64,000 nucleotides of DNA. It comes from a candidate division TA06 bacterium B3_TA06 (GTDB lineage: Bacteria; Hydrothermota; Tepidihabitantia; B3-TA06). Positions 2,817-61,316 of the stretch are shown one piece after another (position 1 is the first letter of the stretch; each line of letters starts with the position of its first letter). The notes below the pieces were generated by a model. It saw only the letters and a program-made list of their open reading frames with translations. It made no database searches and had not been told where the DNA came from. A program made the position numbers and the translations under genes. The stretch spans positions 81,555 through 145,554 of the forward strand of contig NJBO01000003.1 in assembly GCA_005223075.1 (NCBI GenBank). The letters are read 5' to 3'.

Positions 2817-4739
2817 ATGACAGGCAAAAGCTCAAGGTCGGTTGACACCAAAGCGAGGGCAAGCAAGAGATCTCACGATTTTTCGGCACTCTCGCGGAGG
2901 ATACTGCAGTTCGCCAACCGCGGCGCGCCTAGGATTGAGTTCCAGCGCGAGGTCTCAAGGATGCTCATCCGCTTCTCCGGATGCGATGCGGTTGAGCTGC
3001 GCATCACCGACGGCAAGCTGCACTACCGGTGGGAAGCCAGGATGGAACCCAATGAGCGCTTTCAGTTCGAGAAACTCCCCTATATACAGGATGAGAAGGG
3101 GCTGGCGCTCCCATGCCTGCCGGATGGTTCAAGCCTGGAACAAACCTGTAAGATACTGTTAGGTGGTAACTTTGACAGCTCCTATCCTTACTTCACCAAA
3201 ACCGGCAGCTTCTGGACTGGCAACCTGAAGGAGGTGCTGAGTTCCCAAACGGGCGAGGAAACCCCTCCTGATCTGGCGTCTACCGGTGATTACTCCTCAC
3301 TCGCCATGATCCCTTTTGTAATAGACGATAACAATAACGGGCTGATTCAATTAAAAAGCAGAGAGAAGAACTTCTTTACCGTTGAAGAGATAGAGTTCTA
3401 CGAGGGCGTTGCCCAGACCATAGGGATAGCAATGGCAGGCCGCAGAGCACAGACCAAACTGCGTGAGCGCGTCAAGGAACTCTACTGCCTTTACGGGATA
3501 GCCCGACTGGTTGAGGAGCCGGGCATATCTCTTGAGAAGATCCTTCAGGGCATAGCCGATTTGTTGCCACCAGCCATGCGATACCCGGATATAGCCTCGG
3601 CTAGGATAATACTGGATGATAAGGATTACTGCTGCCCGCCGGAGTGTCACGAGACCCGCTACCGGCTGGCCGCGGATATCGTAGTCGAGGGAGTGAAACG
3701 AGGCGTGGTGGAGGTGTTCTACTCAGAGGAGAAGCCTGAGCTTGAGGTGGAGCTTTTCATCGCAGAGGAGCAGAGCCTTCTGGATGCTGTGGCCGCTCAG
3801 CTCGTGCTTATAATCGAACGCAGGCAGTGGGAAGCCGAACGGACCAAGCTTGAGGAACAGCTTCGTCACGCGGATCGCCTGGCTACTCTGGGCCAGCTTG
3901 CAGCAGGCGTGGCACACGAGCTTAACGAACCCCTGGAAGGTGTGCTTGGGTTTGCACAGCTTGCCCGCAAATCCGATGGTCTACCCAAGCAGGCAGGAAA
4001 AGATATCGAGAAGATCGAAAACGCAGCACTTCACGCCAGGGAGGTGGTAAGGAAGCTTCTCATATTCGCCCGTCAGATGCCCACCCATAAAACACTCCTC
4101 AACCTTAACCAGGTGGTGGAAGAAGGACTCTACTTCCTTGAGAGCCGCTGCGAAAAGGAGGGGATCGAGGTGGTGCGCGATCTTGCCGAGGGGCTGGCTG
4201 AGATCACCGCCGACCCGTCACAGCTGAACCAGGTGCTTATCAATCTGGTCGTAAATGGACTCCAGGCAATGTCTGGCGGAGGAAGGCTCACCATAAGAAC
4301 AAGAGCAACAGAGAAGAAGGTTATTCTGATCGTGGAGGATACGGGTGTGGGTATGGACGAGGAGGTTCAAAGACAGATATTCCTGCCCTTCTTTACCACA
4401 AAGGAGGTCGGGCAAGGAACCGGTCTTGGGTTGGCCGTGGTTCACGGGATCGTCACCTCACACGGGGGGACGATCGAGGTTGAAAGCAAGGAAGGCAAGG
4501 GATCACGCTTCACCGTAAAACTACCCCTTACCCGTACCCCTTCGGGGCATTCTCACAATTACTCGAAGCATACGCTCCGTTCAAAAGGGAATAACACCCG
4601 TAACACCCGTACCCCTTCGGGGCATTCTCACAATTACTCGGAGCATACGCTCCGTTCAAAAGGAAATAACACCCGTAACACCCGTAACACGCCTACGCGT
4701 CCTGAGGGACGCGATGAAACTAACAAGGAGACCGAATGA
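2817..4739 (+). CDS. cytoplasmic sensor histidine kinase (tandem GAF-like domains + HisKA + HATPase_c)
   Basis: H-box (LAAGVAHELNEPL), N/G boxes (NLVVNGLQAM, EDTGVGM, GTGLGLAVVHGI). No transmembrane segments are seen. The C-terminal tail is encoded by repeat DNA. The stop overlaps the start of the downstream response regulator. Confidence 0.85.
   Translation: MTGKSSRSVDTKARASKRSHDFSALSRRILQFANRGAPRIEFQREVSRMLIRFSGCDAVELRITDGKLHYRWEARMEPNERFQFEKLPYIQDEKGLALPCLPDGSSLEQTCKILLGGNFDSSYPYFTKTGSFWTGNLKEVLSSQTGEETPPDLASTGDYSSLAMIPFVIDDNNNGLIQLKSREKNFFTVEEIEFYEGVAQTIGIAMAGRRAQTKLRERVKELYCLYGIARLVEEPGISLEKILQGIADLLPPAMRYPDIASARIILDDKDYCCPPECHETRYRLAADIVVEGVKRGVVEVFYSEEKPELEVELFIAEEQSLLDAVAAQLVLIIERRQWEAERTKLEEQLRHADRLATLGQLAAGVAHELNEPLEGVLGFAQLARKSDGLPKQAGKDIEKIENAALHAREVVRKLLIFARQMPTHKTLLNLNQVVEEGLYFLESRCEKEGIEVVRDLAEGLAEITADPSQLNQVLINLVVNGLQAMSGGGRLTIRTRATEKKVILIVEDTGVGMDEEVQRQIFLPFFTTKEVGQGTGLGLAVVHGIVTSHGGTIEVESKEGKGSRFTVKLPLTRTPSGHSHNYSKHTLRSKGNNTRNTRTPSGHSHNYSEHTLRSKGNNTRNTRNTPTRPEGRDETNKETE
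4531..4700. repeat. two tandem 75-bp in-frame repeats (each with CCCCTTCGGGG hairpin) ending in ACCCGTAAC nonamer repeats; forms C-terminal tail of histidine kinase
   Basis: The period is 75 bp (4531 vs 4606). It encodes TRTPSGHSHNYS[K/E]HTLRSKGNNTRN twice, then NTRNT. Confidence 0.8.
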
Positions 4740-6073
4740 CGTCACCTGAAAGTGAACGCATCCTGATAGTAGATGACGCTGTTGATACCCTGGAGGTCCT
4801 ACAGCGTAATCTGGCATCACAGGGCTATCAGGTCTTTACCGCGCAAAACGTGCCGGAAGCCTTAAGGTTGCTTGAAGACACCCAGGTTGATCTGGTGATA
4901 ACCGATTTAAAGATGCCCGGGGCAAGTGGCCTGGATCTGGTGCGATACGTGCGGGAGAACCTTGCGGACACCGAGGTGATGATGATTACAGGATATGCCA
5001 CCGTAGAGGGTGCTGTTCAGGCGGTAAAGCAAGGGGCCGAGGAGTATCTTTCAAAGCCCTTTACCGACGAGGAGCTTTTCTTGGCGGTAAGAAAGGCGCT
5101 TGACAAACTACGTATGCGCAGGGCCGCGCAGGTATCCGAGGATATCCCGTCGCCTCATGGGATAATCGGCTCCTCAAAGGTCATGCGCGAGGTCTTCGGC
5201 GCCATCCATAAGGCGGCGTCAACCCCGGCTACGGTGCTCATCACAGGGGAAAGCGGCACTGGCAAGGAGCTTGTGGCCAGGGCTATCCACTACTCAAGCC
5301 CACGTGCCTCACCACCCTTCGTGCCTATCAACTGCGGGGCTATACCGCATGAACTCCTGGAATCGGAACTCTTCGGGTATGTTAAGGGTGCGTTTACCGG
5401 CGCGGCAACGACCAGGGCAGGTTTCTTTCAAACCGCAGACGGCGGCACCATCTTCCTTGACGAGATCAGTGAAACAAGTCCGGCCATGCAGGTTAAGCTC
5501 TTGCGGGTGCTGCAGGACAAGGAGATCTTCATGCTCGGCTCACGAAAATCCGAAAAGGTTGATGTGAGGATTATTGCCGCAACCAATAAAGACCTACAGG
5601 CCCTTGTCAAAAAGCAAAACTTCAGGGAGGACCTTTACTACCGCCTCAACGTCATTACCATTGATCTTCCACCGCTGCGGGAGAGGGATGACGACATACT
5701 CCTGATGCTGCGACATTTTACGGAAAAGTTTGCAGAGGAGCTTGGCAAACCCACACCTAGCTTCTCTGACGAAGCGCTTGAGGTTCTAAAGAACTACCAC
5801 TGGCCCGGTAACGTGCGGGAACTCGAGAACGTAACCCAACGGTTGGTGGTGATGGTGGAGGGGGATACGATAGATGTTAAGGATTTGCCGGCACTTATGC
5901 GCTTTTCTCCAAAGGCTCAGGGATTTGAAAGGACCTTGGCCGAGGTGGAGGCAGAACACATACGCAACGTGTTGGCAAGCGTTAACGGCAACAAAACCAA
6001 AGCAGCAGAGATACTCCAAATCGACCGAAAGACCTTGCGCGAAAAACTCAGGAAGATGGAAGAATCCCAGTAA
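4736..6073 (+). CDS. sigma-54-dependent response regulator (NtrC family: REC + AAA+ sigma-54 activator + Fis-type HTH)
   Basis: REC domain (D in VITDLKMPG), Walker A (GESGTGKE), GAFTGA motif present, C-terminal HTH (KTKAAEILQIDRKTLREKL). Confidence 0.9.
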   Translation: MTSPESERILIVDDAVDTLEVLQRNLASQGYQVFTAQNVPEALRLLEDTQVDLVITDLKMPGASGLDLVRYVRENLADTEVMMITGYATVEGAVQAVKQGAEEYLSKPFTDEELFLAVRKALDKLRMRRAAQVSEDIPSPHGIIGSSKVMREVFGAIHKAASTPATVLITGESGTGKELVARAIHYSSPRASPPFVPINCGAIPHELLESELFGYVKGAFTGAATTRAGFFQTADGGTIFLDEISETSPAMQVKLLRVLQDKEIFMLGSRKSEKVDVRIIAATNKDLQALVKKQNFREDLYYRLNVITIDLPPLRERDDDILLMLRHFTEKFAEELGKPTPSFSDEALEVLKNYHWPGNVRELENVTQRLVVMVEGDTIDVKDLPALMRFSPKAQGFERTLAEVEAEHIRNVLASVNGNKTKAAEILQIDRKTLREKLRKMEESQ

Positions 6074-6671: not shown

Positions 6672-7934
6672 ATGAAAAAGGCGAGCGTTTACGATAACGT
6701 AACCAAGCAGTTTAACAAGGCTGCTGATTTGATGCATCTGGATCCTGAGATCCGCAAGGTACTTGCTAGAACCAACAATGAGGTAATCGTCAACTTTCCG
6801 GTTAAGATGGACGACGGCCACATCGAGATGTTCACCGGTTACCGGGTGCAGCACAACAACGTGCTTGGCCCTTACAAAGGGGGGCTGCGTTTTCACCCGG
6901 CGGTAGACATCGACGAGGTTCGCGCCCTTGCCACCTGGATGACATGGAAGTCGGCCATAGTGAACCTCCCGTTCGGTGGAGCAAAAGGCGGCATCCAGAT
7001 CGATCCATTCAAGTACTCGGCAAGCGAGCTTGAGCACATCACCCGCCGATTCACCTTTGCCCTGGGCTCGAACATAGGGCCTGAGTTCGACATCCCGGCA
7101 CCGGACGTAAACACCAACCCTCAGATAATGGCCTGGATCCTGGATACCTACCTCTCCACCATACCTGCCCACGAGCGTCAGGCGGCAGTCCATGTAGTTA
7201 CCGGCAAGCCTGTCGAGTCGGGTGGGAGCATAGGCCGCAACAAGGCTACTGGCCAGGGTGTGGTCTTTACCATCGAGCAGTGGGCCAAAGATACCAACTT
7301 TGATCTTGAGGGTGCGGCATACTTCGTTCAGGGATTCGGGAACGTGGGTTCCTGGGCGTCCCGTCTCCTCAAACCCCACGGTTCAAAGCTCGTTGCTGTC
7401 GAGGATGTAAGCGGGGCTATTGCCAATCCAAAGGGGATCGATCCCGACGACCTTTATGAGTATACGCAGAAGAATAAGGGATTGATTGGCGGCTACGCAA
7501 AGGCCAAACCTATTGATCACGAAACCTTCCTTGCGACCAAGGCCGACATCTTCATCCCGGCGGCTCTTGAGAACCAGATCACACTAAAGACCGCTCCAAT
7601 GCTTAACGTGAAGCTGGTTGCCGAAGGCGCAAACGGTCCCACCAATCCGGACGGTGATAAGATTCTTAATGAAAAGGGAACCGATCTTCTTCCAGACGTC
7701 CTTTGCAACGCGGGCGGCGTGATCGTAAGCTACTTCGAGTGGCTGCAGAACAAACGCAGCGAGTTCTGGGATCTTGAAGAGGTGGATGGAAAACTGCACC
7801 GCAAGATCGTTGCAGGCTACGAACGCGTTCGCGATACGGCTCGAGAGCACAACATAGACTGGCGAACCGCGGCCTACATCGTCGCTCTCTCACGTCTTGA
7901 AACGGTATACAAGGAACGTGGAATCTTCCCATGA
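6672..7934 (+). CDS. gdhA: glutamate dehydrogenase (Glu/Leu/Phe/Val dehydrogenase family), canonical
   Basis: PYKGGLRFHP and LPFGGAKGGI motifs intact; C-terminal NAD(P)-binding domain (VQGFGNVG). Confidence 0.9.
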   Translation: MKKASVYDNVTKQFNKAADLMHLDPEIRKVLARTNNEVIVNFPVKMDDGHIEMFTGYRVQHNNVLGPYKGGLRFHPAVDIDEVRALATWMTWKSAIVNLPFGGAKGGIQIDPFKYSASELEHITRRFTFALGSNIGPEFDIPAPDVNTNPQIMAWILDTYLSTIPAHERQAAVHVVTGKPVESGGSIGRNKATGQGVVFTIEQWAKDTNFDLEGAAYFVQGFGNVGSWASRLLKPHGSKLVAVEDVSGAIANPKGIDPDDLYEYTQKNKGLIGGYAKAKPIDHETFLATKADIFIPAALENQITLKTAPMLNVKLVAEGANGPTNPDGDKILNEKGTDLLPDVLCNAGGVIVSYFEWLQNKRSEFWDLEEVDGKLHRKIVAGYERVRDTAREHNIDWRTAAYIVALSRLETVYKERGIFP

Positions 7935-7937
7935 GCA

Positions 7938-7994
7938 GCCCCGTAACACCCGTAACACCCGTAACACCCGTAATACACGTAACACACGGTAACA
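7938..7994. repeat. (ACCCGTAAC)n nonamer tandem repeat, intergenic between the two gdh paralogs
   Basis: cccgtaac acccgtaac acccgtaac acccgtaat acacgtaac acacggtaac. Confidence 0.8.
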
Positions 7995-8008
7995 GCAAAC
8001 CGTAAGGA

Positions 8009-9277
8009 GTGATGATGAAGAAGGAAACCGGTTTCTACGGCGACGTTCTTGAGGGGCTCCATAATGCCGCGGATTTGATGAAGCTAGACTGTGAGGTTCT
8101 CAAAATCCTTACCAAGACTACCAACGAGATTACCGTCAACTTCCCGGTAAAGATGTCAAACGGTCTGGTGGAGATGTTCACTGGCTATCGTGTGCAGCAC
8201 AACAACGTGATGGGTCCCTACTCGGGCGGACTTCGCTTTCATCCCTGGGTTGATCTGGGAGAGATGCGCGCGCTTGCTACTGTGATGACGTGTAAGGCGG
8301 CTATCGCCGGTATCCCATTCGGCGGGGCTGCAGGCGGGATCCAGTTCAACCCCTCTGACTACAACTCCTCTGATGTGGAACGAATCACCCGCCGCTTTAC
8401 CTACTCACTTGGCTCGAACATCGGAGCGGAGTACGACATACTCACCTCGGACGTGAACACAAACCCCCAAACTATGGCCTGGATACTGGATACCTACCTC
8501 TCTACCATGCCTCCGGAAAAAAGGCAGGCCAAAACACACGTGGTCACCGGCAAACCCATCCACCTGGGCGGCAGCGTCGGACACGACAAAGCAGCGGGCC
8601 AGGGGCTTGTCTTTGCCATCGAGGAATGGGCAGCTGGTCACCGTTTCGATCTTGAGGGTGCTGCCTACACGGTTCAAGGATTCGGAAGTGTAGGTGTTTG
8701 GACCTCCATCTTGCTCAATCAAAAAGGAGCAAAACTCGTTGCCGTTGAGGATACCTCTGGGCCCATCCTTAACCCGGATGGAATTGATCCTGAAGACCTT
8801 TTCGCCTACGACAAGGAGAACGGACGCATAGCAGGCTACCCCAATGCAAAACCGATAGATCACGAGGCCTTCCTTGCTACAAAAGCCGATATATTCATCC
8901 CAGCCGCGTTGGAGTATCAGATCACCGCCCAGACCGCACCCAAGCTCAACGTCAAGTTGGTGGTCGAGGGAGCCGACTGCCCCTGCGATCGAGATGGCTC
9001 AAAGATCTTGAAGGAGAGGGGAATTGAGGTGCTCCCAGACATCCTGTGCAACTCCGGCGGCGTGATCGTGAGCTACTTCGAGTGGCTGCAGAACAAACGA
9101 AGCGAGCTGTGGGAACTTGAAGAGGTAGACCGCAAACTGCAGAACAAGATGAAGGACGCTTACCACCGGGTGCGCGACCGAGCAGCGGAGTTCAATACCG
9201 ACTGGTGCACCGCCGCACGCATCGAGGCACTTACCAGACTGGAGAGAATCTACAAGAGACGAGGTATCTTCCCGTAA
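8009..9277 (+). CDS. glutamate dehydrogenase-family paralog with substitutions at two conserved lysines (possible pseudo-enzyme or altered specificity)
   Basis: It aligns with the upstream GDH along its whole length. It has PYSGGLRFHP (K to S) and IPFGGAAGGI (catalytic K to A). The true start is probably the ATG at 8012 or 8015, after AAGGAG. Confidence 0.85.
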   Translation: MMMKKETGFYGDVLEGLHNAADLMKLDCEVLKILTKTTNEITVNFPVKMSNGLVEMFTGYRVQHNNVMGPYSGGLRFHPWVDLGEMRALATVMTCKAAIAGIPFGGAAGGIQFNPSDYNSSDVERITRRFTYSLGSNIGAEYDILTSDVNTNPQTMAWILDTYLSTMPPEKRQAKTHVVTGKPIHLGGSVGHDKAAGQGLVFAIEEWAAGHRFDLEGAAYTVQGFGSVGVWTSILLNQKGAKLVAVEDTSGPILNPDGIDPEDLFAYDKENGRIAGYPNAKPIDHEAFLATKADIFIPAALEYQITAQTAPKLNVKLVVEGADCPCDRDGSKILKERGIEVLPDILCNSGGVIVSYFEWLQNKRSELWELEEVDRKLQNKMKDAYHRVRDRAAEFNTDWCTAARIEALTRLERIYKRRGIFP

Positions 9278-9305
9278 CCCGTAACACCGTAACCCGTAAC
9301 ACGGG
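9271..9305. repeat. (CCCGTAAC)n repeat overlapping the gdh paralog stop codon
   Basis: The sequence is cccgtaacccgtaacaccgtaacccgtaacacggg. The TAA stop at 9275-9277 lies inside a repeat unit. Confidence 0.7.
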
Positions 9306-9310: not shown

Positions 9311-9360
9311 ATTTCCCCTAGAAGGGGTTCAGCTCAAACCAGGTCGGGGCCTGAGCCCCG
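9311..9360 (+). terminator. two GC hairpins (TTTCCCCTAGAAGGGG and CGGGGCCTGAGCCCCG) downstream of gdh operon; candidate terminator / palindromic element
   Basis: The stem-loops are visible directly. The first motif recurs at 61317-61340. Confidence 0.35.
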
Positions 9361-9448
9361 GCCTTTCTCTACACGTAGGTCTTTGTGAATAATACCGAGC
9401 GGATGAGCCTCAGAGGGTCGGGTGTCTGCCCTCAGACCGGGATTTATA

Positions 9449-12576: not shown

Positions 12577-13428
12577 GAACTCTATCCGTCTATTCCTGTA
12601 TGTCAAGAGGCAATACCGGACCCCCCGGCGACATGCCATCGCAGGCAGATACCGCCGGCAGGTTCGGGAACCGCTTTAACTCATCCGTATGCTGAGAGTT
12701 AATCTTAACGGTTATGATCCTGGAAGGATCGGGGGAGCTCGGAAAAGGTCTCTTCCCCTAGATCAACACCAACCACCTCATCGTTTACCCAAATCCTGGT
12801 TTCACGTTATCCCTCCTTGGATGCATACTATCTGCTTTGGCAGAGGAAGTCAAGTGGACAAATGTCTGTGCGCCAAGAGATTGTTACCAGGGTAGCGTGA
12901 TAGGGTGAGGGAAAGATGTGGAACAGCCTTACCTGCCTCTGTGCACGAGGGTGTCGCTCAATTCAAATTGCAAACTGCAAATTCTAAATTGCAAATTTGT
13001 CTGGATACAAGCGATAGAACTGTGGGCTTCGATTATGGAGAGATGAAGGGTATATGTTTGAGATTCTAATGAGTGTTGGTCCAGAGGGATAGATAAGCCT
13101 GGTTGTGGAGTATAGCTAATTACTAAGTCCAACAGTTTATAAAAACCGTCGCCGTCAATCTTGGGGTTATCCTTTAAGTTTGGGAATTGGCCATCACAGT
13201 GGACCAATTTAGCGAGTTGCAGGCCGATAAGTTCAAATAATCGGCAAGTTACCTTTGGCGGCAACCGCATTCAGACCATGCGGATAAGAATACCTCCTCA
13301 AGCAAAGGCCTTCTGTCTTCAGCACACTATCTTCTCCCTTGATGGGAAGGAGAGGTAACGAATGCTTCCTATCTTGACATCTTCGGCTGAGCCGTGTAGG
13401 ATATTCCTAATCCAACAAGGAGGAAAAG

Positions 13429-14565
13429 ATGAATAACCTTGCGTTCATAAAACGAGCAGCGCTCGTTATCCTTGCGCTGCTGATGCCCGTAACTGTTACC
13501 TGCAAGAAACAAGCCGGGAATAACAACCAAGTCGAGGAACGGTATCTCATCATCACTGAAGAAGGCGGGGACGAGAAAGAGATAGATGTCACCGGCTGGG
13601 AGCCTGGCGAAGAGTTCGTCTGGTTGAGTGGATTCGGCTACCCCTGGCAAGGTGAAGACAGCCTTGACTACCGTATCGAGGATGGTCTTCTATGGGTGAA
13701 CGGCAAGCTGGTCGGTGCGGACCTTGAAGAGGTCGCGTTCGCCGATCTGTCCAATCCTGAGGAGATAGTTAGCGTTCGCACGGATGCAGAGCATATGTTG
13801 GAGCTGAAGCGATTCCCCAATCTTACTGTAGTATTTCCTTTTGTCATAAAAGATGATGACTTGGCACACCTTAAGGGTTTCACCAACCTTAGGGCGTTGT
13901 ATCTGCTCGGGCCCCTGATCACGGACGCCGGGCTTCGCCACCTTTCAGGCCTCACCAACCTGAGGGAGTTGTATCTGTGGGAGACCGACATCACGGACGC
14001 AGGGTTTGTGCATCTCAAGGGTCTCACCAACCTGAGGGTGTTGAGTTTGTTCGAGACGGATATCACCGACGCCGGGCTTCGCCACCTTGAGGGACTCAAG
14101 AACCTGAGGGTGTTGGGTCTGCTCGGTACCGATATCACGGACGCCGGGCTTGCCCACCTTAAAGGTCTCACTAACCTGAAGGGGTTGTATCTGAACGGCA
14201 CCGATGTCACGGACGCCGGGCTTCGCCACCTTTCAGGCCTCACCAACCTGAGGGTGTTGGATCTGGGGGCCACCGACATCACGGACGCTGGGCTTACGCA
14301 CCTTAAAGGACTCACCAACCTGAGGGAGTTGAATCTGTGGTATACCGCTATCACCGACGCGGGACTTAAACACCTTAAAGGTCTCACCAACCTGAGGGAG
14401 TTGAATCTGCGGAATACCGACATCACGGACGCCGGGCTTCGCCACCTTGAGGGCCTCAAGAATCTGAGGATGTTGGATCTGTGGAGAACCAAGATCACGG
14501 ACGCCGGGGAAAAAGAGTTAAAAAAGGCGCTGCCGGAGTGTGGGATTTACCGTCATTATAGGTAA
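13429..14565 (+). CDS. secreted leucine-rich-repeat (LRR) protein
   Basis: Signal peptide present. There are about 9 tandem 24-aa repeats (LKGLTNLRxLxLxxTDITDAGLxH). Confidence 0.85.
   Translation: MNNLAFIKRAALVILALLMPVTVTCKKQAGNNNQVEERYLIITEEGGDEKEIDVTGWEPGEEFVWLSGFGYPWQGEDSLDYRIEDGLLWVNGKLVGADLEEVAFADLSNPEEIVSVRTDAEHMLELKRFPNLTVVFPFVIKDDDLAHLKGFTNLRALYLLGPLITDAGLRHLSGLTNLRELYLWETDITDAGFVHLKGLTNLRVLSLFETDITDAGLRHLEGLKNLRVLGLLGTDITDAGLAHLKGLTNLKGLYLNGTDVTDAGLRHLSGLTNLRVLDLGATDITDAGLTHLKGLTNLRELNLWYTAITDAGLKHLKGLTNLRELNLRNTDITDAGLRHLEGLKNLRMLDLWRTKITDAGEKELKKALPECGIYRHYR
13849..14497. repeat. about 9 tandem 72-bp coding repeats (LRR units)
   Basis: Near-identical 72-bp units are visible in the DNA. 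The antisense ORFs in the track are artefacts of these repeats. Confidence 0.8.
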
Positions 14566-15071
14566 GGATCGCAGAGGGAGCTAACGGCATGGACGCGGCT
14601 GCGCCGCTCATTTCAAATTTCAAAGTGCAAAATGCAAATTGAAGGTGCGCTAACGGCTAACAGCTCACCGCCGACCGCCCACGGCTGACAGCAAACGTGT
14701 ATAGGGTGTACCTTAAAGCATCCGTGGGATATTAGTTCGCTAGCGAGGCTGATACCCTATGAACGCATACAGTGCTCAAGGGATATGCTATACCTGACGG
14801 GAGCACGCTGTCCCATTAAGGGAGGAGAGTAATCTGCCTCCTCTATAAGAACCAGTCATGTAAACAGTTACACCTGTATCCAAACTCTAAACCCTCATGC
14901 ACCCCCCCTACCTCCCTATGCATCTTGCCAACCGACCCAGATTAACTTCCCTTAAAGGCATCTAACTAATATTCTCGAATCTCCCTCTACCCTCTTCTCC
15001 AGACCCCCCAATTAGTCCGCTCTCATGGTCAATTCCCTTAAGTTTTTCTATCCTTAGTTTAGCTGTATCGT

Positions 15072-22517: not shown

Positions 22518-22560
22518 GTCCCCACGGGGTTGGAAACAACTCCGTGGGGACTTTGTTTTC
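22518..22560. terminator. rho-independent terminator (10-bp GC stem GTCCCCACGG/CCGTGGGGAC + T-run) between convergent luxC-like and SDR genes
   Basis: A perfect inverted repeat is followed by TTTGTTTTC. An A-run sits on the other side, so it may act in both directions. Confidence 0.6.
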
Positions 22561-23789: not shown

Positions 23790-24362
23790 ATGAGAGTTTA
23801 TCAATGTGGTAAGCGTTGGTATGTCGAGGACTCATACAACCCGAAAAGGTACCGCCGGTCCGCGGGTCGGACTAAGCGGGAGGCTCTTTTAAAACTTGGC
23901 GAGATTGAACGCTACAAAGAAGTCTGGATAGAGAATGTAAAGTCTGCTTCCGTTAACCGTGAGTTGGCGTTACTAAGGCATATGCTCCGTAAGGCAATAG
24001 ATTGGGATTACCTGCGGAAAGAAAATCCTGCAAGCAGGGTGAAACAGTTCAAGGAACCCTCAGGACGGGTAAGATACCTCTCCTTTGAAGAAAGAGAGCA
24101 ATTACTTGAAGCGTGTAAGCGGACTGGTATCGAGGATTTCCATTGTCACAGCCTTAGACACACCTTTGCCTCTTATCGCGTTATGGCGGGTGTAGACATC
24201 CGAACGGTTCAGGTACTGATGGGACACAAGGACATCAAGATGACCATGCGGTATTCGCATCTTTCCAAGAGATACCTCAGAAAGGCGGTAAACCGGATGG
24301 TCACAAATTGGTCACAAGTCGAGGATGCACCCGTCGAGCAATCTCCCAAGTTACGGAGTTAA
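23790..24362 (+). pseudogene. degenerate tyrosine-recombinase (integrase) remnant lacking most of the catalytic core
   Basis: The N-terminus is integrase-like (RRSAGRTKREALLKLGEIE). Box II is present (HSLRHTFAS...LMGHKDIKMTMRYSHL). The protein is only 190 aa, and the Box I Arg region between LSFEERE and HSLRH is missing. Confidence 0.5.
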
Positions 24363-24370
24363 AGAAACTT

Positions 24371-24442
24371 GCCGACGTAGCTCAGCGGTAGAGCAACGCT
24401 TTCGTAAAGCGTAGGCCGGTGGTTCGAATCCACTCGTCGGCT
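24371..24442 (+). tRNA. tRNA-Thr (anticodon CGU)
   Basis: A manual cloverleaf fold gives a 7-bp acceptor stem, D and T arms (GGTTCGAATCC), and anticodon loop TTCGTAA. No CCA is encoded. Confidence 0.9.
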
Positions 24443-24757
24443 TTTTCAATCGTTACCCAGTAGGGCGCAACCCGTTGTAACACAAGCACTTACAAGGGAT
24501 ATAGGTATCCCTTTGGGCGGGTGCAAGGTTTACCCTATCACACCTGAAAAGTAGGCGTTTGGGTGCAAAAATGGCTAAGAACCCCTAAAATAACACACCT
24601 ACTGACACAGCCCAAAAGGTGCTCGGAGAAACACAGCCCAAACACACCGCCGTCAGTTTGGGCCGCTGCCCAGAACTCAAAAGGTTAGTGCAGTAGGTCT
24701 ATATCTTCTCAAGCCGCTCTCTGAATCCGTCTTTCAAATGTACACGGGGCAACCTCG

Positions 24758-24973
24758 TCATTTTACCCGAATGTAAGTGTATCCTTCCTTTTTTATGTTT
24801 TGATCCAAATACTGACCTTTTGAAGGAGCATTCATAAGACCATCATATAAGGCAAGTGGAACACCAAAGTATTGATAGATTCTACCCCCATGAAACTCCA
24901 CCTCTAAGACTTGAGTAGATCGGTTGTACCCTACGGATACAAGATTACTCGATTGAACTGGGATTCTCTTCAT
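24758..24973 (-). CDS. KTSC-domain protein (71 aa)
   Basis: It matches the KTSC consensus (SSNLVSVGYNRSTQVLEVEFHGGRIYQYFGVPLALYDGLMNAPSKGQY). Its RBS overlaps the stop of the upstream ATPase gene. Confidence 0.7.
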   Translation of the reverse strand: MKRIPVQSSNLVSVGYNRSTQVLEVEFHGGRIYQYFGVPLALYDGLMNAPSKGQYLDQNIKKEGYTYIRVK

Positions 24974-24982
24974 CTTGTCACC

Positions 24983-27475
24983 TCAAATTTTCAGATTACC
25001 ACACCGACACTGCTTGAGTTTCGCATTGTTGGGTGAGTATTTTTTGCAAGCTTCTGTATTACAACTTGGACAAACGAAAAGGGCCTTAAATTCATCTATA
25101 TCTCTAAGAACCGTTTCCACATCCCCTCTACTTAAAGTAGTTGATTGCATGTTCCGATGATGTGAACCTAAATTTGTCAGCAGTTGACTTGCTCTTAAAT
25201 CATCAAAAATTGCTTTCCCATCCTTTGAACGCAGAGACTGGTTCTCATTTATGTAACTCCGCAGACCATCTAACAACTCGCTTGCTTCTCTTTGATCATT
25301 CCTAGGGCCTACACGAAATTCAAGGCTTTTCACACCGAGTTTAGAGCATTTGTCTTTCAACAATTCTTCAATTAAAGTTCTACAACGATTCGCAGCCTCA
25401 TGTATATTATTTCTCTCCAATTGCCATTTGATTCTTTCGTCTAATGTAGCTGGTGACTCTATGACCTCAACCCCTCTTTCAATTGACCATTTTTTCAACC
25501 CACGAAAACGCCATTTACCTGTAGGTGACAAGGTTTTCTTCAACTCTTCAAACCAGAGATCATCGTGTGTAAAAAGCAGAATCTGAACATCAGAAAACTC
25601 ATCACGGAGTAACCTTGCCAAAGCAAACCTGTGGTTCGAATCAAAACTGCTAATAACGTCATCGAGTATAATGAAATTGCTTACTTTGTTGAAGTATCTA
25701 ATGAAGGCTAAGAACAAACAGATACCAAGACTATTCATGTGGGATTCGCTTAGAACCTTTCGCGGTGGTGATATTTCCAAGCCGTGAAACAGAAGCTTGA
25801 ACTCGACACCCCTAAGTTCTGTTTGAATAAGCTGTATTTGATCTATTTTTTCGTCCAAATGAAGACGAGCAAAAAATTTTTCAACGTCGGAAGATATCAC
25901 CGAGATCACGGCGTTAAGCCCTTCCTTTTCTCGATTTTCAAAATCTCGTAGTACATGCCACATTGATGATATTTGTTCCCTGAATTTCTCAATCTTTTGA
26001 TTCAACCTTTGGATCTTTATAAAATTATCGCGCAATGAGTCAAGCCTGGCGACATTCCTGTAAAAAATCTTTTCTTCCTCGGTATCAGATAGTTCATCCT
26101 TGAGCGCTGCTAACTTCCCTCGTGTCTTTTGAATAGCTTCACTTAAGACTCTTAGACTTTCATCATTCGGCACTCCTACTTCAGTTGGTTCAATAACCTT
26201 CTGCATATTGATTGTCAAATCGTTCCACGCATTAAGGCGGTTCAGCCAGTTAATTATCTGATTCAATTCGTCGGGCAAGGTAAGGAGCTTCTTGTTTTCT
26301 TCGCTCTCGAATTCCTGGATTCCATCCATAGATGAAGTTATACTTACCCTCAATTGTTTCACGCTATCAATAAGTTCCTTTTTCTCTTTTAACAATGCTT
26401 CGAGCCTAATTACTTCTTCTTCCACAGTTTTTTGGAGTTGCAACGTATCAAATTTACTCTTACATAGAGGGCACTTGTTTGGTGCACCCCACCCTTTACT
26501 CAAAATCTGTTGGGCCTTGGCATAAAGACCTTCCCATGCCGAAGCAGCCAACAATTCCGGTTTCGCAACAAGTTTGTTGTGTTTGCCGGCGATGGTCTTT
26601 AACTGATTACAAATTTCTTCGGGTGTGCGTATTTTCTCAATGGCCCTCTGTAAAACCTCAACCGCAAGGCGCTTTTTACCTTTGTCGGTTCTCAATGTTT
26701 GTTCATCTAGGGTGTTGGCTACTGCAATTAGAGACTCAAAATCCGTTATTGGTTGAGGATGCTTTAGTTCTGCTCTTATTTGTTCAGTCGAACTGTCTGT
26801 CAAAGTCAGTCCCCTTAATTCGAGATGCTTTAGTTCTGCTCTTATTTGTTCAGCATAACTGATAATATCCTGAATTTCAAAAGTGTCGCGACCAATAATC
26901 CGACCGATTTCTTCTTTGCTATTCTGCAACCTAGCTTCATTTTGGATTAGTTCCTTGTCATCTTTCAACGCATTGTATACCTTCAGCAGAATCTCTCTCA
27001 TCTCCGTTACAACCCTAAACCCTACAATTTCCTCTATATCTTCAAGCTTTTCACTTTTTGTCTTGTCAACGAATCTTCCTATCGTAGAATGTCTTAAAAT
27101 GAATGATTCTTTCGCGACCTCCTCTATAAACTTATTAAATTCCTCAGATTGATTCGAAGAATAATACCCCCCTTTCCTTTTCAACGTCTTAACGGAGCTT
27201 AAGTTCACATCATCAAATTCAAGCGTAACAGTTGCATCTTGACTATCGGGCAAAGCCTTATTGAAGTAATCCTCTCTACCGCAACCTTCCTTTCTAAGGT
27301 CTTCTATTTCGTCAGTAAAGAACCATTCAATCGCATCTGTAAAGCTACTTTTACCATCACCATTGTTGCCGTATAAAACGAGATTTGGTGCATTATTGGG
27401 GAATTCAAGCACAACAGGCTTTAGAATGCCTCTGAAACCCTCTATGGTTAATCTCTTTAGACTAACTTTATCCAT
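24983..27475 (-). CDS. Rad50/SbcC-like ABC ATPase with coiled-coil zinc hook (CPLC) and C-terminal ~200-aa extension ending in a Cys4 Zn-ribbon; candidate RloC/PrrC-like anticodon nuclease
   Basis: Walker A is GNNGDGKSS. The middle is a long coiled coil containing CPLCKSKF. Near the C-terminus are Walker B/D-loop (FIILDDVISSFD) and an H-loop (LLFTHDD). The extension has an R-x3-E motif (RTLIEEL), SHH, and CPSC...CRCG. It sits next to a restriction-modification gene. Confidence 0.55.
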   Translation of the reverse strand: MDKVSLKRLTIEGFRGILKPVVLEFPNNAPNLVLYGNNGDGKSSFTDAIEWFFTDEIEDLRKEGCGREDYFNKALPDSQDATVTLEFDDVNLSSVKTLKRKGGYYSSNQSEEFNKFIEEVAKESFILRHSTIGRFVDKTKSEKLEDIEEIVGFRVVTEMREILLKVYNALKDDKELIQNEARLQNSKEEIGRIIGRDTFEIQDIISYAEQIRAELKHLELRGLTLTDSSTEQIRAELKHPQPITDFESLIAVANTLDEQTLRTDKGKKRLAVEVLQRAIEKIRTPEEICNQLKTIAGKHNKLVAKPELLAASAWEGLYAKAQQILSKGWGAPNKCPLCKSKFDTLQLQKTVEEEVIRLEALLKEKKELIDSVKQLRVSITSSMDGIQEFESEENKKLLTLPDELNQIINWLNRLNAWNDLTINMQKVIEPTEVGVPNDESLRVLSEAIQKTRGKLAALKDELSDTEEEKIFYRNVARLDSLRDNFIKIQRLNQKIEKFREQISSMWHVLRDFENREKEGLNAVISVISSDVEKFFARLHLDEKIDQIQLIQTELRGVEFKLLFHGLEISPPRKVLSESHMNSLGICLFLAFIRYFNKVSNFIILDDVISSFDSNHRFALARLLRDEFSDVQILLFTHDDLWFEELKKTLSPTGKWRFRGLKKWSIERGVEVIESPATLDERIKWQLERNNIHEAANRCRTLIEELLKDKCSKLGVKSLEFRVGPRNDQREASELLDGLRSYINENQSLRSKDGKAIFDDLRASQLLTNLGSHHRNMQSTTLSRGDVETVLRDIDEFKALFVCPSCNTEACKKYSPNNAKLKQCRCGNLKI

Positions 27476-27713
27476 TGCCTGCCTCTCTCAATTCCTTCAA
27501 CCCATTAAGAATCTCTTCTTTGGTAAATCTACTGCTATAAAAAAGGGAACGTAAAAGACCCATAACATCGGCATCGATCCGCAAAATGTCAAGTTCTTTA
27601 AAGAACTCCGCAACTAATTCCTTGCCTGTTTTTATGTCGGAAGCCTTCTCTCGCTCTTGTTCGCCCATTCCTATTTTCGGCTGTTCTTTTGTCTCGCCTG
27701 AAGATTCGGTCAT
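27468..27713 (-). CDS. hypothetical small protein (81 aa) between RM gene and ATPase gene
   Basis: A plausible RBS precedes the ORF. It overlaps the start of the downstream ATPase by 8 bp. No recognisable motif was found. Confidence 0.4.
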   Translation of the reverse strand: MTESSGETKEQPKIGMGEQEREKASDIKTGKELVAEFFKELDILRIDADVMGLLRSLFYSSRFTKEEILNGLKELREAGNG

Positions 27714-27921
27714 TTAATATCCTCTTTTTTGCCGATCTGCCAACCTCATAAGGAAATACTATACACTTAGACTATCCTTTTGTCAAGCCCCTTTGCCTAA
27801 AATTGCGACTTTAAGAAATTGCCTCTCTGAGATTTCAGAGCAGGATTAGGGCAAGGAATTGGTGCAAAAGTGGTGCAATTTTGGTGCAGGGGCTTAGGGT
27901 GAAATTATGGTGGGCGATAGT

Positions 27922-30900
27922 CTATCCCTTGCAGGGATTTCCCTTTCCTTCAACGATCTCGATTTCCTCAGGGGTTAAGGCATAAAGCTTGTAGACAAGG
28001 CGGTCAATCTCGCGGTCAGTTTCGGCGATCTCAGTTACGACCGGCGTGAGTTTGTTTTTGTATTTATCAAAACCTTTTGAGAGGAGCTCGTAGTTCCTGG
28101 GTTCGCGGGTGTTGAAGGCAAGCTTGCGGTTCTTTGCGATAAGGTCGGCAAGGGCGTTGGCATCGTCAAGCTTCTCAAGGCCGCGGATGCGCTCCCTGCC
28201 CGAAAGCTCAGCGAGCTTTGCCCCTATAAGGTGCTCCAGCCAGCCGGAGTATTCTTTAACTATCTCCTGCTTGCGCTTGTGCAGGTCAAGCATAGCTTGT
28301 ACAAGCTCAACCATATCGTTGTGCATCTTCTTGTCTTCGGGCTTGGAGAAGTCGATTGTGCGGATGGGCATAGACTCTACTTCGTTTGTTCCCACGTTGT
28401 TATTCGTACTTGTGATCTTAAATCTCCACTGGAACAACTTTGAATTTAACAAACCCATTAAATAATAAAGATCGTACTCCGTCCTAACATTCAAAGTAAT
28501 GGAATTTGTAGAATCCGCAAAATAGGTCGGTGGCTTTATAATCATTGCAACGATTCGCCATTTTTCATCAACTCCCGTTATTCTTTGAGTTGCTATACGA
28601 CGCTTGAATACTTCTTCAGGAATAGAATTTCCATCCTCCAAAAATTTCTTCTCATCGAACCATTCCCTTTCACCTTGACTTAACACATCTTGGAAATAGT
28701 ATCTCCCAATTTCCACTCCTTTCAATAATCTAGACATACTGGAATCACTGGTAATGAACTTGCTATATATTGTTTGATTGATTTCTCCTCTTCTTACATC
28801 AAAAGTATCTTCTTCTGCTAATCTTACAATACCTTCGGTTAGGTACATTTTCCGACAAACCTCCCAGTTACTCTGGTCAACTAAAGGAATAGGAATATTA
28901 TTTGGATCGAGCAATACCAAATCATCAAATTTGATTAAAGCCTCACGACATTCATCTTCAAAGCTGTTTCCAGGAAACACCCGGATATGAATTTGAGTCA
29001 TTTTGGGTGATTGAGGTTCGTTCATACAAGTAACAATCGTTGTGGACAGTTTTGCATCCTTAAAAATTCTCCGTTTAGAATTATCTTTTTGCGGGAAACA
29101 ATCTGCTAATAATTCGCAGGTTGAAAGCATCAAATTACGTCGCGCTTTTGAGCAACTTATATCTGCAACCAAAGATAAAGGCACAATCATACCAAATCGA
29201 TCCCCTCGTTGTAAAAGCCCTAATGCTCTTACAATAAATAATCGGTACAGATTAAGCTTACCACCTAGCGCTGCCTCGTACAGAGGGATATTCTTTACAT
29301 AATCACCCAATTCTTTATGGGGGCTAGAGATTCCTTTCCTTTCCTTCTCAAGAACGTCATACGGCGGATTCCCTATCACCGCGTCGAAGCCGGGATTGGC
29401 AAGCGGCCTGCCGTGCTTATCGAAAAACACTTCTGGAAACTCAAGCTCCCAGTGGAAAAAGTGATGCTTGTTCCAGAGCTTAGTTGCTTTATCCACCCAC
29501 TTTTCGCGCTCCAGCGCGGCAAATGCCTTTTTATCGTCTTGCCTCAGCGCTTCCACAAGCCGCGAGTAGTCCTTCGGCTTGACCTCGTTCCCGAAGTAGG
29601 TGGAGACCCAGACGTCGGCGGCCTGGCGAAAAGGTTTCATCATCCCCCGCGCCTGCTTGAGCCGCTTTATCTTGTCATCTATCTGGTCAATGGTATCCGA
29701 AGGCTCGTCCTCAATTTGCTTATAATAGACTATCGTGCGTGCCGAGTAGTGTTCAACTATCTGCTGAAACAGCGAGCCGGTTTTCTCGCCCGGCAGGTTG
29801 CCAAGCTCTGCAACCTTTGCGCCGATAAGCGAATCTCCAGGACGCAGGTGATGGTCAAGGAAGGAAAGCGGCTTGTTCGCGGCCACGGTTGAAAGCCACA
29901 AGGAAAGCTTGGCAAGCTCCACAGCAAGCGGGTTCTTATCCACCCCGAAGATGCAGCGCTCTATAATCAAACGCTTTGCCTTGCCGATCTCGTCCTCCGT
30001 TTCCTCAATCTCCTTAACTCCCAGAAGCTTGGGGGCAAGGAAATCGGTTGCCTCAACCAGAAAGTGTCCCGAACCCATTGCCGGGTCGAGCACACGGAGC
30101 GAAAGGAGTTCCTTCTCTTTAATGTCCTTGGTCAGCGGTTCAAGGGTGTGCTCGACAATGTATTTCACGATGTAGTCCGGCGTGTAGTAAGAGCCTGTGG
30201 CCTTGCGGTCGCCCCGCTCTGTCACGGGGTAGTATTCCCCTTTCCCTACGCTGTCCGTAGTTTTGCTTATCTCCTCTTCTTTGCGTTCCCGCAAGGGCTT
30301 CCATTGCTCTTTCTTTCCCTTTTTTACCGCGACCATCGGCTCAGAGGCAACCTCAAGATGATTTTCTAAAAGCCCCTCGTATATGCTCCCAAGGTCCCTG
30401 ATTTTCAAGCTCGAATAGTCAATGAACTCCTTTTTTGGCGTAGTCTTTGTCTGGGGTCTGGATAAAAGGTCAATAACCTCGGCAAGCCAGCGGTCGCCTA
30501 TTTTGTACTTCTTGAGGAACTCGTGCTGATTGTCATCGAAGAGACCACCGTTATAAGGGGCAATACCCAGGTCTTTTTCCCCCTGGTCTATAAGTGTTGA
30601 AAGGGCAGATAGTTTGCCCCACAGCATAGGTATGCTGCCGCCGTAAGGCGGCCCGTCCTTCCTTGCGTATATCTCCTCCTTCATACTCTCCAGGCTGTAG
30701 TGTTGAAGGTAGCTTCTGTTAGAGATTGGCAGGAGCAACTTATCTTCGGCGTAGAGTATAAACAAGAGACGGTAGAGAAGAACAAAGCAGTTTTCGCGTA
30801 TAAGCTCCTTGTCGCGCACAGGCTCCAAGCGGTTTTCTTTAAACTCCACGAATCCCTGAGCGAGTATTCGAAGCGCCTTGTAAACGTTGTCCTTAAGCTC

Positions 30901-31647
30901 CGCGCCGACGGCTTCAGCGTAACGGACTGAGCCGTCAAGCACGTAGTCGAGAAATCGCGGGAATGCTTGACAGCGAAAGAACATGTAGAAATACTTAAAG
31001 GCTTCAAGTTGTTCATCACGGCTTACGCCTGCTGCAAAGAGGGGCCCGTCGGAGTTTATTAGGCTTACAAGATTAACCTCGTAGTAGCGGTCAAGGTGTT
31101 TGCTTTGTTCCCGCTCATACAAACGCCAGATTCGCCCGTTAGTGAGTATGCCCCAACGTACCTCGCTATAGAGAAGATACAGGTGCATTTGGTAGGCAGG
31201 GTTGCGGTACTCGAAATCAAACAGGTCGGGCTCGTAACGCGATGAAAGGTCTAATTTGCGATTCCAATGCTTGGCTTCGCAAAGACCTATTGCTTTGTTG
31301 AAAAGCTCCCATTCCTTGCCCTTTTCCGTAGAGGCTTTCTTTTTTGCAGATTCCGTGTCGAATAACGCATAATCGGGCCTTCTGATGCCTTCGGCGGTTT
31401 TCTCTCGCGGTTGAACAATGTAATGGTGACCGAGTATTTCGAGTATGGGCCTGATGAAGTCGTTTTCCAGTTGAGGTTCGCTTAAAGCGGGGAGTCTCGT
31501 TAAATTCTCCTTATAGAGCTTGGAGATACCTTCAAAGGCTTCTTCAATCCCTTCGTGATCCCGCCATTCTCTTTCTTCTGGTAGTATTTCTTCAAGGTAG
31601 TGGTTTGAGAAGAGGTCTTGATTGGTGTGTAAAGAATTGGTACCCAT
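27922..31647 (-). CDS. type IIG/IIL restriction-modification enzyme (fused PD-(D/E)xK nuclease + N6-adenine methyltransferase + target-recognition domain)
   Basis: The N-terminus has a PD...E-x-K motif (RRPDYALFD...GLCEAKHW). MTase motif I is VLDPAMGSGHFL and motif IV is GNPPYD. A C-terminal region of about 450 aa is the likely target-recognition domain. Confidence 0.8.
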   Translation of the reverse strand: MGTNSLHTNQDLFSNHYLEEILPEEREWRDHEGIEEAFEGISKLYKENLTRLPALSEPQLENDFIRPILEILGHHYIVQPREKTAEGIRRPDYALFDTESAKKKASTEKGKEWELFNKAIGLCEAKHWNRKLDLSSRYEPDLFDFEYRNPAYQMHLYLLYSEVRWGILTNGRIWRLYEREQSKHLDRYYEVNLVSLINSDGPLFAAGVSRDEQLEAFKYFYMFFRCQAFPRFLDYVLDGSVRYAEAVGAELKDNVYKALRILAQGFVEFKENRLEPVRDKELIRENCFVLLYRLLFILYAEDKLLLPISNRSYLQHYSLESMKEEIYARKDGPPYGGSIPMLWGKLSALSTLIDQGEKDLGIAPYNGGLFDDNQHEFLKKYKIGDRWLAEVIDLLSRPQTKTTPKKEFIDYSSLKIRDLGSIYEGLLENHLEVASEPMVAVKKGKKEQWKPLRERKEEEISKTTDSVGKGEYYPVTERGDRKATGSYYTPDYIVKYIVEHTLEPLTKDIKEKELLSLRVLDPAMGSGHFLVEATDFLAPKLLGVKEIEETEDEIGKAKRLIIERCIFGVDKNPLAVELAKLSLWLSTVAANKPLSFLDHHLRPGDSLIGAKVAELGNLPGEKTGSLFQQIVEHYSARTIVYYKQIEDEPSDTIDQIDDKIKRLKQARGMMKPFRQAADVWVSTYFGNEVKPKDYSRLVEALRQDDKKAFAALEREKWVDKATKLWNKHHFFHWELEFPEVFFDKHGRPLANPGFDAVIGNPPYDVLEKERKGISSPHKELGDYVKNIPLYEAALGGKLNLYRLFIVRALGLLQRGDRFGMIVPLSLVADISCSKARRNLMLSTCELLADCFPQKDNSKRRIFKDAKLSTTIVTCMNEPQSPKMTQIHIRVFPGNSFEDECREALIKFDDLVLLDPNNIPIPLVDQSNWEVCRKMYLTEGIVRLAEEDTFDVRRGEINQTIYSKFITSDSSMSRLLKGVEIGRYYFQDVLSQGEREWFDEKKFLEDGNSIPEEVFKRRIATQRITGVDEKWRIVAMIIKPPTYFADSTNSITLNVRTEYDLYYLMGLLNSKLFQWRFKITSTNNNVGTNEVESMPIRTIDFSKPEDKKMHNDMVELVQAMLDLHKRKQEIVKEYSGWLEHLIGAKLAELSGRERIRGLEKLDDANALADLIAKNRKLAFNTREPRNYELLSKGFDKYKNKLTPVVTEIAETDREIDRLVYKLYALTPEEIEIVEGKGNPCKG

Positions 31648-32246
31648 GTCTACCCCCAGTATATCTAACTATAAGAGTACGTCAAGCATATTCCCCTTCA
31701 CCCCGCAGCAGTGTAGCACTAACCAGCAGGCGCGAGGCAGGGCTGCTTGTCTAAAAAGCGTTCCAAGGCTCAGGCGAAAACCGACTTTAAGAAGATAGAG
31801 GACGAAGTTAAGAAAACAGAAGAGGAGCAAGCTAGACTTGTCAAAATACGCAAAGAACAAGACAAGGAAGCCTGCCAAGACTTTATTATTTGAGATGATT
31901 AGATTTAGGGAAATAAAAATGCCCATAAATAACTGCCAGGGGAAGGAATTATTAAGTTGCGCAATTGCGCCACTTAGTAAACGCAAGCGTATTTATTGGT
32001 TTATTGGAAAAAATGGGGGAAATGGTGGATAAATCTATAATTAAGGAATAAATACAGCAAACTCAAGGCGACACTACGTCTATTGCTATCCCGTATTGAT
32101 GATTCCCTTCCCGCTCTATAGCCTTTCTTTCCTTCCGCACTTCCGAGCCTGCTGATTGCGATTACTTCGTGGCATACGGTTTTAATGAAGAAGAATTAAA
32201 AAACGCTCAAACTTGATAAATACATCATAGACACCATGCGTGGAGC

Positions 32247-53691: not shown

Positions 53692-53866
53692 TTCTGCGAG
53701 CTTTTAGCACTCCGGAGCACACGTCGCCTTCAGCGAAAAGGAGCATTAATTTTCGGCATCCCCGTGCGGAGACGAAGTATCCGCGTAGGGTAAGTTGTTG
53801 ACATTAACCCCCAGGGCGTTATCATCACAAATTACAACGATTGAACCAAGAGCTTAAGGAGGCTTT

Positions 53867-54826: not shown

Positions 54827-54846
54827 ATGAGAGGTTTATCCTGGGT

Positions 54847-54877: not shown

Positions 54878-54884
54878 TGAAACT

Positions 54885-61262: not shown

Positions 61263-61316
61263 AACACCCCGCACGTCCACTTCGCGTCCGCGCTGGGACC
61301 CCGGCAATTAGTGCTC

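Follow-up and report, generated by a model that had tools for sequence, protein, structure and literature searches.

The 9-base unit ACCCGTAAC forms short tandem arrays of variable length that lie between genes, provide stop codons and run in frame within genes, and these arrays are restricted to one lineage, candidate division WOR-3/Stahlbacteria. The 64-kb stretch of DNA analysed here (the window) holds five such sites. We consider it probable, at roughly 60%, that the arrays are dispersed, slippage-prone and hypervariable repeats specific to this lineage, and that they represent essentially selfish or neutral DNA. In the best reading, they belong to a mosaic repeat system with features of the cyanobacterial STRR with their embedded hairpin elements and of the Rickettsia palindromic elements (RPE). 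The family is well supported and previously undescribed: the tandem 17-mer was not found in the literature searched, where the listed matches to a single nonamer look unrelated and are apparently primers, and the main paper on WOR-3 genomics does not mention repeats.

Rotations of ACCCGTAAC are the commonest 9-mers of the window. The exact nonamer occurs 11 times (nine copies on the plus strand and two on the minus strand), always within arrays, and the dimer ACCCGTAACACCCGTAAC with up to three mismatches has 8 near-matches against 0.03 expected, a number reached in none of 100 shuffles. Direct inspection and TRF both recovered the five tandem sites described in a first-pass annotation of this DNA. 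TRF placed period-9 arrays at 4592-4611, 4667-4690, 7940-7994 (6 copies), 41370-41390 and 63223-63242, and a mixed 7/9 (15-nt) array at 9271-9302. The annotation had assigned 9-bp units to all sites; this holds for five of the six window arrays, whereas the array over the gdh2 stop mixes 7-nt and 9-nt units. A wider search for arrays, which the annotation had called for, yielded 99 sites in 68 fetched loci plus the window (~0.53 Mb). These sites carry 2-7 units each, 64 of them only two or three, and their phase is fixed, with [A]CCCGTAAC at the start and ...GTAAC-AC(A/C)CC at the end; the last unit is followed by AC in 88 of 94 sites and then by (A/C)CC.

Two of the window sites adjoin tandem Glu/Leu/Phe/Val-dehydrogenase paralogues at 6672-9277 (gdh1, 6672-7934; gdh2, 8009-9277), both of which end in ...RGIFP and whose mutual identity is 64-67% in the relative L032. 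The array at 7938-7994 reads CCCGTAAC ACCCGTAAC ACCCGTAAC ACCCGTAAT ACACGTAAC ACACGGTAAC and lies after the gdh1 stop (7932-7934) and ahead of the ribosome-binding site of gdh2; TRF resolves it as six units on the plus strand (7940-7994), three perfect and three degenerate. At the other end of gdh2, the plus-strand mixed array (9271-9302, CCCGTAA / CCCGTAACA) begins within the gene itself. The 3' end TTC CCG TAA coincides with the first repeat unit, whose TAA (9275-9277) is the stop codon of ORF 8009-9277; the annotation had placed units over this stop codon. A hairpin and then a T-rich stretch follow this array at 9341-9364. The inverted array (41367-41389, minus strand) consists of two units and a terminal ACACC and lies, as described before, inside the coding sequence of an HExxH protein (41184-41804), where it is read as VLRVLRV. 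The array at 63218-63245 (plus strand, CCCGTA-CCCGTAAC-ACCCGTAAC-ACACC) lies within roughly the last 10 codons of the znuC ORF (62431-63270), which terminates in ...RTRNTRNTPKSEKGKR.

The fifth site, in the 3' tail of a histidine-kinase (HK) ORF (2817-4739), is a composite element on the plus strand (4530-4693). It is made up of ACCCGTA (4530-4536), core copy A (4537-4595), ACCCGTAAC-ACCCGTA (4596-4611), core copy B (4612-4670) and two units with a terminal ACGCC (4671-4693). Two 2-unit arrays with a 59-nt core between them are thereby contained in a tandem duplication of 75 bp x 2.1 (4530-4686, 97% identical), which TRF detected and which holds two core copies; nhmmer finds both cores.

Other tandem repeats are present in the window. 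Degenerate heptamers (AAATTGC-like) at 12960-12997 and 14610-14641 flank a leucine-rich-repeat-like gene (ORF ~13411-14562, with 72-bp coding repeats at 13867-14508); the segment 12877-12974 matches L003 at 89%, so that this region, too, has further copies in the lineage. Positions 27857-27888 hold a GGTGCAA-type repeat with an 11-nt unit. Positions 24000-32000 have a G+C content of 0.42-0.47, compared with ~0.54 elsewhere, and a tRNA (24371-24442) at the edge; this region may be a horizontally acquired island.

The core of the HK element recurs outside the window. We found 19 copies of ~58 nt in MAGs of at least five species, each abutting an array on at least one side and all in one orientation relative to the units; about one-sixth of the array sites enclose a core. 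The window version is CCCCTTCGGGGCATTCTCACAATTACTCGGAGCATACGCTCCGTTCAAAAGGAAATAAC, and the core is nested within a single unit as ACCCGTA/core...ATA/AC. It carries two hairpins, CCCC-UNCG-GGGG and CGGAGC-NNNC-GCUCCG, the first with UUCG, UACG or UCCG loops in the copies examined. The annotation had described the repeats as following a perfect hairpin at both the HK and znuC sites. This is correct for znuC (14 bp, 63181-63211), whereas the hairpins at the HK site belong to the core and have short stems of 4 bp and 6 bp.

The annotation had also suggested a compact composite element of REP/MITE type. The composite of array and core is real in at least five MAGs, but the comparison with MITEs failed, as the composite has no terminal inverted repeats and is flanked by direct repeats; the sole inverted pair in 4500-4740 is the stem of the second core hairpin in one copy against the other copy. 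Could the core nevertheless be a true miniature transposable element (MITE- or REPIN-like), mobilised in trans by a transposase encoded at another place in the genome and inserting at the TA of the unit? The constant placement ACCCGTA/...ATA/AC would fit the duplication of a TA target within a unit, the copy number is high, arrays lie at contig ends, and core presence differs between orthologous sites: the composite of L009 corresponds to two units in L118, and that of L047 to an array without a core in L033. However, the junction fits TA duplication and no duplication equally well, and common descent of all copies from a single composite would account for its precision just as well. No multi-copy transposase-like family emerged when ORFs of 120 codons or more from the 68 loci and the window (~0.53 Mb of MAG fragments) were clustered; the clusters comprised only ordinary orthologues and paralogues with a T9SS-type C-terminal tail. 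With the core also missing from 2.9 million viral contigs, we regard such an element as improbable, somewhat more so than the RNA function discussed below.

The hairpin beside the znuC array belongs to a family of its own (the hairpin-2 family). Its member in the window, at 63179-63219 on the plus strand, comprises CACCCCA, the perfect 14-bp inverted repeat (63181-63211) and GGGGACCCCG, directly abuts the array and matches the family covariance model with 51.4 bits. The geometry is fixed at 41 nt, with (C/T)ACCCCA, a 14-bp stem and then an invariant GGGGACCCCG; this exact 10-mer occurs 26 times in 0.53 Mb, where ~1 copy is expected. The stem arms vary among copies yet pair, often around a UUCG or UGCG loop, with compensatory changes at 9 of 14 pairs and 59 doubly changed cells, compared with 21.7 ± 3.7 in shuffles and 5-18 in slid controls. 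The covariance model identified four clear copies in the window (63179-63219 and 61265-61305 on the plus strand, 54839-54879 and 53752-53792 on the minus strand), one weak copy (22518-22551), and ~45 copies in the fetched loci. Only about four copies abut a nonamer array, a number that by our estimate fits two families sharing scarce intergenic DNA. The znuC hairpin is therefore distinct from the arrays and probably just shares intergenic space with the znuC array, so that the fusion of repeats to hairpins reported in the annotation applies to the core and is probably incidental here. The family has no match in Rfam; it may act as DNA in the manner of REP elements or represent a new RNA motif. 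About 8 nt past the hairpin lies a conserved module of TGCTCCTTTT, a variable stem-loop and AAAAGATCGCA (window 61309-61345, also in L118, L009 and L008), which suggests a larger bipartite mosaic element of hairpin-2 and downstream module. The stem CCCCTAGAAGGGG also recurs after the gdh2 array at ~9315-9327.

To define the distribution of the family, we used an exact scan for the 17-mer CCCGTAACACCCGTAAC in one genome per species (GTDB, 596 Gb), which returned at least 120 loci. Among those listed, eight MAGs that carry the label candidate division WOR-3 or Candidatus Stahlbacteria contribute 66, and one unlabelled MAG with the same arrays adds two, giving 68 loci from nine MAGs; as a perfect dimer was required, the fetched loci are biased toward intact units. 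By our own arithmetic, ~69 matches are expected by chance in 596 Gb on both strands, which accounts for the scattered single matches in other taxa. Multiple matches in Nostoc lie in longer-period repeats (~12-15 nt) that resemble coding Gly-rich repeats and are not nonamer arrays. Matches outside WOR-3 were accordingly rejected as family members, being either consistent with chance or of this Gly-rich-like kind. A viral origin was likewise rejected: among 2.9 million viral contigs, the 17-mer has 46 matches, mostly single, and the ~58-nt core has none.

Several matches in other taxa are recorded here as separate observations. Three Streptomyces genomes (L005, L015 and L026) have 3-4 tandem ACCCGTAAC-like units in GC-rich DNA, maybe intergenic, which goes beyond a chance dimer. 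A Methanoculleus sp. contig (L039) carries a CRISPR array of 39 spacers, of which those near 763 and 1863 contain (ACCCGTAAC)2-3; no full-length protospacer for these spacers was found among the fetched loci. In two Methanomicrobiales loci (L027 and L046), the dimer adjoins inverted copies of GTTACGGG, and a mobile element of Methanomicrobiales may carry the same nonamer.

A Stahlbacteria contig (L032) matches the window at 93% identity and a contig of another species (L055) at 86-94%, and metagenome contigs with 92-97% identity to the window were also found; L167-L171 derive from metagenomes such as Ga0114925 and Ga0315533. The arrays recur in independent assemblies and at orthologous positions, which establishes that they are not an assembly artefact, an outcome that the annotation had named as fatal to its proposal. 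At 18-60 nt, the arrays should moreover be shorter than a sequencing read, and a chance feature or artefact is an explanation that we give almost no credence. Contig ends are found within 150 nt of at least six arrays, which suggests that the family breaks short-read assemblies and probably limits what they recover of these genomes.

Comparison of close relatives revealed changes by whole units. In the gdh spacer, the number of units is 3 in L032, 5 in L170, 6 in the window, L167, L168 and L169, and 7 in L171; the six relatives are 92-97% identical to the window, the array flanks are near-identical, and the differences are whole units. The gdh2-stop array differs among the six relatives by unit-sized indels (~6-16 nt) while the position of the stop is constant. 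Copies are also present or absent as composites. The annotation had proposed comparing orthologues to learn whether the tails are insertions, and the HK-tail composite is indeed absent in three relatives (L032, L167 and L171), in which the kinase ends 16 codons past ...VKLP and overlaps the start of the response-regulator gene. At the window junction, ~60 nt beside the element also differ from these relatives, so import by recombination from another strain is as likely as local insertion.

Several arrays are kept at orthologous sites across species, with flanks 73-80% identical and differing unit counts. At such sites the units remain perfect, although this perfection is inflated by the way the loci were collected, through a perfect dimer. 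At the HExxH site, our own count gave 0 of 7 changed codons in the array, compared with 9 of 20 in the adjacent conserved stretch. Unit perfection at diverged sites may point to selection or active homogenisation instead of neutrality. The arrays might be actively written or maintained, by an undescribed site-specific recombinase or by templated repeat addition with the nonamer as a landing pad, or might be selected DNA signals that form quadruplexes or bind proteins; the perfect units at old sites, the fixed phase and the constant placement of the core would all fit. We hold this to be a doubtful alternative, a little more so than the miniature transposable element. If true, it would make the arrays a functional genome-wide signal system in an uncultured phylum, and not junk. 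One intergenic array has flanks that are 90-98% identical in four species (L001 ~5921, L036 ~4475, L072 ~2646 and L067 ~1435), far more conserved than typical intergenic DNA, suggesting that a conserved non-coding feature adjoins it.

A related proposal concerns DNA structure, in which the G-rich strand (GTTACGGGT)n would form a G-quadruplex and so create a hotspot of recombination or of replication pausing. Direct inspection of the sequence shows a likeness between the unit and telomere-type repeats (TTACGGG vs TTAGGG), and the canonical G3+N1-7 x 4 motif is matched at 37 of the 99 sites. Arrays also account for 38 of 63 such motifs in the fetched loci, a share drawn from loci selected for containing arrays, and for 2 of 5 in the unbiased window. 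However, the 64 sites with two or three units have too few G-runs on their own, and we consider a quadruplex hotspot very unlikely.

To relate the arrays to genes, we used two heuristic callers. Both rest on log-odds of codon usage learned from long ORFs; at the threshold used, this model has a sensitivity of 89%, with 5% false positives per 60-codon window. According to the first caller, 42 of the 99 sites are intergenic or unclear, 24 are at gene 3' ends, 25 are in frame in CDSs, and 8 are at locus edges, at least 6 of the latter being true contig ends. Sites at gene 3' ends, for which the annotation had asked for a test of association, thus make up 24 of the 99. The second caller placed 54 of 99 sites in intergenic DNA, compared with 24% non-coding DNA by the same calls, indicating that the arrays are strongly enriched outside genes, yet many lie within them. 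Their orientation relative to genes shows no bias among the 99 sites beyond the trivial one of stop-donating copies: internal arrays run with the gene in 11 cases and against it in 14, and 3'-tail arrays without the stop-donating cases do so in 6 and 5 cases, respectively.

Five of the six reading frames of the unit are free of stops, and all five are used in apparent CDSs or tails (TRN 14, LRV 9, VTG 5, YGC 5 and PVT 4), with predicted peptides that include TPSGHSHNYSEHTLR. The 9-bp period thus does keep frames open, as the annotation had argued, and copy changes between close relatives come in whole units. The sixth frame, CCG TAA, supplies the TAA stop of the gene at 13 sites, including gdh2 of the window. 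The annotation had described the readout as Thr-Arg-Asn repeats; TRN is used, but is merely one of the five frames, and the core is likewise read in the TRN, PVT or VTG frame depending on the site. Although TRN is the commonest in-frame reading (14 of 37), the use of all five frames places the signal in the DNA and not in the peptide, and about half of the sites are intergenic. We therefore consider selection for a Thr-Arg-Asn peptide extremely unlikely. A protein-database search with the element peptide gave a single match, a 73-aa WOR-3 hypothetical protein, the query being too short for the size of the database. Separately, paralogous ORFs in four MAGs (L001, L028, L036, L101 and L105) contain an array read as CYGCYG in the context W-G-E-[CYGCYG]-P-G-V-Y-F; by eye, the tail that bears it looks like a T9SS-type C-terminal sorting domain, and the repeat seems to have spread together with this sorting-like domain.

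That coding insertion is tolerated, another claim of the annotation, is borne out by composite copies in frame within genes. When the MnmA of L081 is aligned to Escherichia coli MnmA (2DER), blocks 4-128 and 160-370 correspond, and the 31 extra residues between them are the element. Other in-frame hosts, named by eye from their translations, include glycosyltransferase-like, oxidoreductase-like, GlyS-like and radical-SAM-like ORFs, as well as a diguanylate-cyclase-like ORF with C-terminal repeats, in which the array occupies an orthologous site in two species. The HExxH array has the orthologous position in L055 (15 nt, or five residues, more than the window) and in L078; a 75%-identical homologue has three residues fewer ('RVL' gapped), and the aligned distant homologues also lack the extra residues. 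The in-frame tails at HK and znuC hold at the level of the ORFs (2817-4739 and 62431-63270). The HK ORF stays open across the whole element and ends at a TGA overlapping the start codon (ATG) of the following gene, and its HATPase_c domain ends at residue 572 of 640; for the ZnuC ABC ATPase, PDB homologues align only to about residue 236 of 279. If these tails are translated, such elements would have produced 68 residues of the HK and the terminal ~30 of ZnuC as by-products.

The positions of the window arrays might suggest that arrays and core act as RNA cis-elements that stabilise mRNA between cistrons or at 3' ends, mark sites of processing or space genes for translational coupling; roles of this sort have been suggested for STRR and REP elements. 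Gene 3' ends hold four of the five window sites, and three of these (HK/RR, gdh1/gdh2 and znuC/next gene) are junctions with a following co-directional gene. The loops of hairpin 1 are all UNCG, the unit is conserved across species at orthologous sites, and transcript stability or translational coupling has been proposed for STRR (PMC2670836). Such a role is nonetheless unlikely in our view, given that arrays occur in both orientations relative to genes, that about a quarter of the sites lie within CDSs and that copy number is hypervariable between near-identical strains. The core was also rejected as a convincing structured RNA: it has two short hairpins with a compensatory change at one base pair only, and the composite folds no better than shuffles (z = -0.85). 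Searches of Rfam 15 were in line with this; only two tRNAs passed the gathering thresholds in the whole window, and in three sub-regions searched at E ≤ 10 the matches near the element had E ≥ 0.02, far below gathering scores. Overall, the RNA, transposable-element and quadruplex explanations have weaker support than a selfish or neutral repeat.

Based on these comparisons, we propose a plausible history for selfish or neutral repeats of this kind. Whole units would be added to arrays or removed from them, most likely by slippage during replication, and cores would be gained or lost within arrays. Loss could occur by recombination between the flanking direct repeats, which would delete the core and leave a 'solo' array, and gain by insertion or conversion into existing arrays. 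Harmful copies would be removed by selection, and the survivors would be found where harm is small: between genes, at 3' ends where the CCG-TAA frame supplies the stop, and in frame in presumably tolerant protein loops or linkers. Persistence in frame would be possible because the unit is 3 x 3 nt with five of six frames free of stops.

This architecture is reminiscent of several known repeat systems. Elhai et al., in 2008, reportedly found small hairpin elements (small dispersed repeats, SDR) to be often embedded in tandem heptamers, much as the core is nested in ACCCGTAAC arrays. STRR (short tandemly repeated repetitive sequences) are 7-bp repeats of cyanobacteria with no known function, possibly transcript stability or translational coupling; like the present family, they consist of short units peculiar to a lineage, arrayed in tandem at numerous loci and frequently placed between co-transcribed genes (PMC2670836). 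They reportedly also occur within a functional gene, that of the RNase P RNA (Vioque 1997). In both families, one unit is found at many loci, mostly outside genes (here 42-54% of the 99 sites are intergenic). The differences are that the unit is 9 nt and not 7, so that length change never shifts the frame, that the sequences are unrelated, that the hosts are WOR-3/Stahlbacteria MAGs and not heterocyst-forming cyanobacteria, and that a sizeable share of ACCCGTAAC copies lies in protein-coding sequence or provides a stop codon.

RPE insert in frame in housekeeping genes (PMC10969869), and the present elements similarly insert in unrelated genes with the ORF kept (MnmA, the glycosyltransferase, the oxidoreductase-like ORF and the HK tail). 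However, RPE are palindromic, ~100-150 bp long and encode one conserved peptide, whereas the core here has ~58 nt, two local hairpins, no overall palindrome, flanking direct nonamers and several reading frames, and about half of the ACCCGTAAC copies are intergenic. REPINs have been described as miniature mobile DNA (PMC3116915). The REP/BIME and REPIN-RAYT systems resemble our family in their short hairpin repeats, intergenic mosaics, high copy number and ability to break assemblies, but the composite here has direct symmetry and no inverted doublet, tandem nonamers dominate, and the arrays are not restricted to extragenic DNA (about a quarter are in CDSs). In the simple-sequence contingency loci of phase variation, close strains likewise differ by whole units at a given locus; unlike there, a 9-nt unit cannot switch frame, the changes in the gdh spacer being multiples of 9, and the ACCCGTAAC unit is spread over ~100 sites and is not locus-specific. 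The ACCCGTAAC family thus lies outside STRR, RPE and REP/BIME in sequence, host and defining features, and is nonetheless the same kind of thing.

For annotation, these findings mean that repeat DNA extends ORFs of these MAGs, cuts them short or interrupts them in frame, and that the HK tail, the ZnuC tail and the MnmA insert are to be read as repeat-derived and not as domains. The whole-unit changes provide VNTR-type markers for strain typing in a lineage with mostly uncultured members. The family also offers clear filled and empty sites for the study of dispersal. Finally, it adds a second, independent case to that of Rickettsia for small repeats within protein-coding genes, and shows hairpin elements nested in short tandem arrays in a lineage other than cyanobacteria, which by analogy suggests that the architecture of nested and in-gene small repeats may arise repeatedly.
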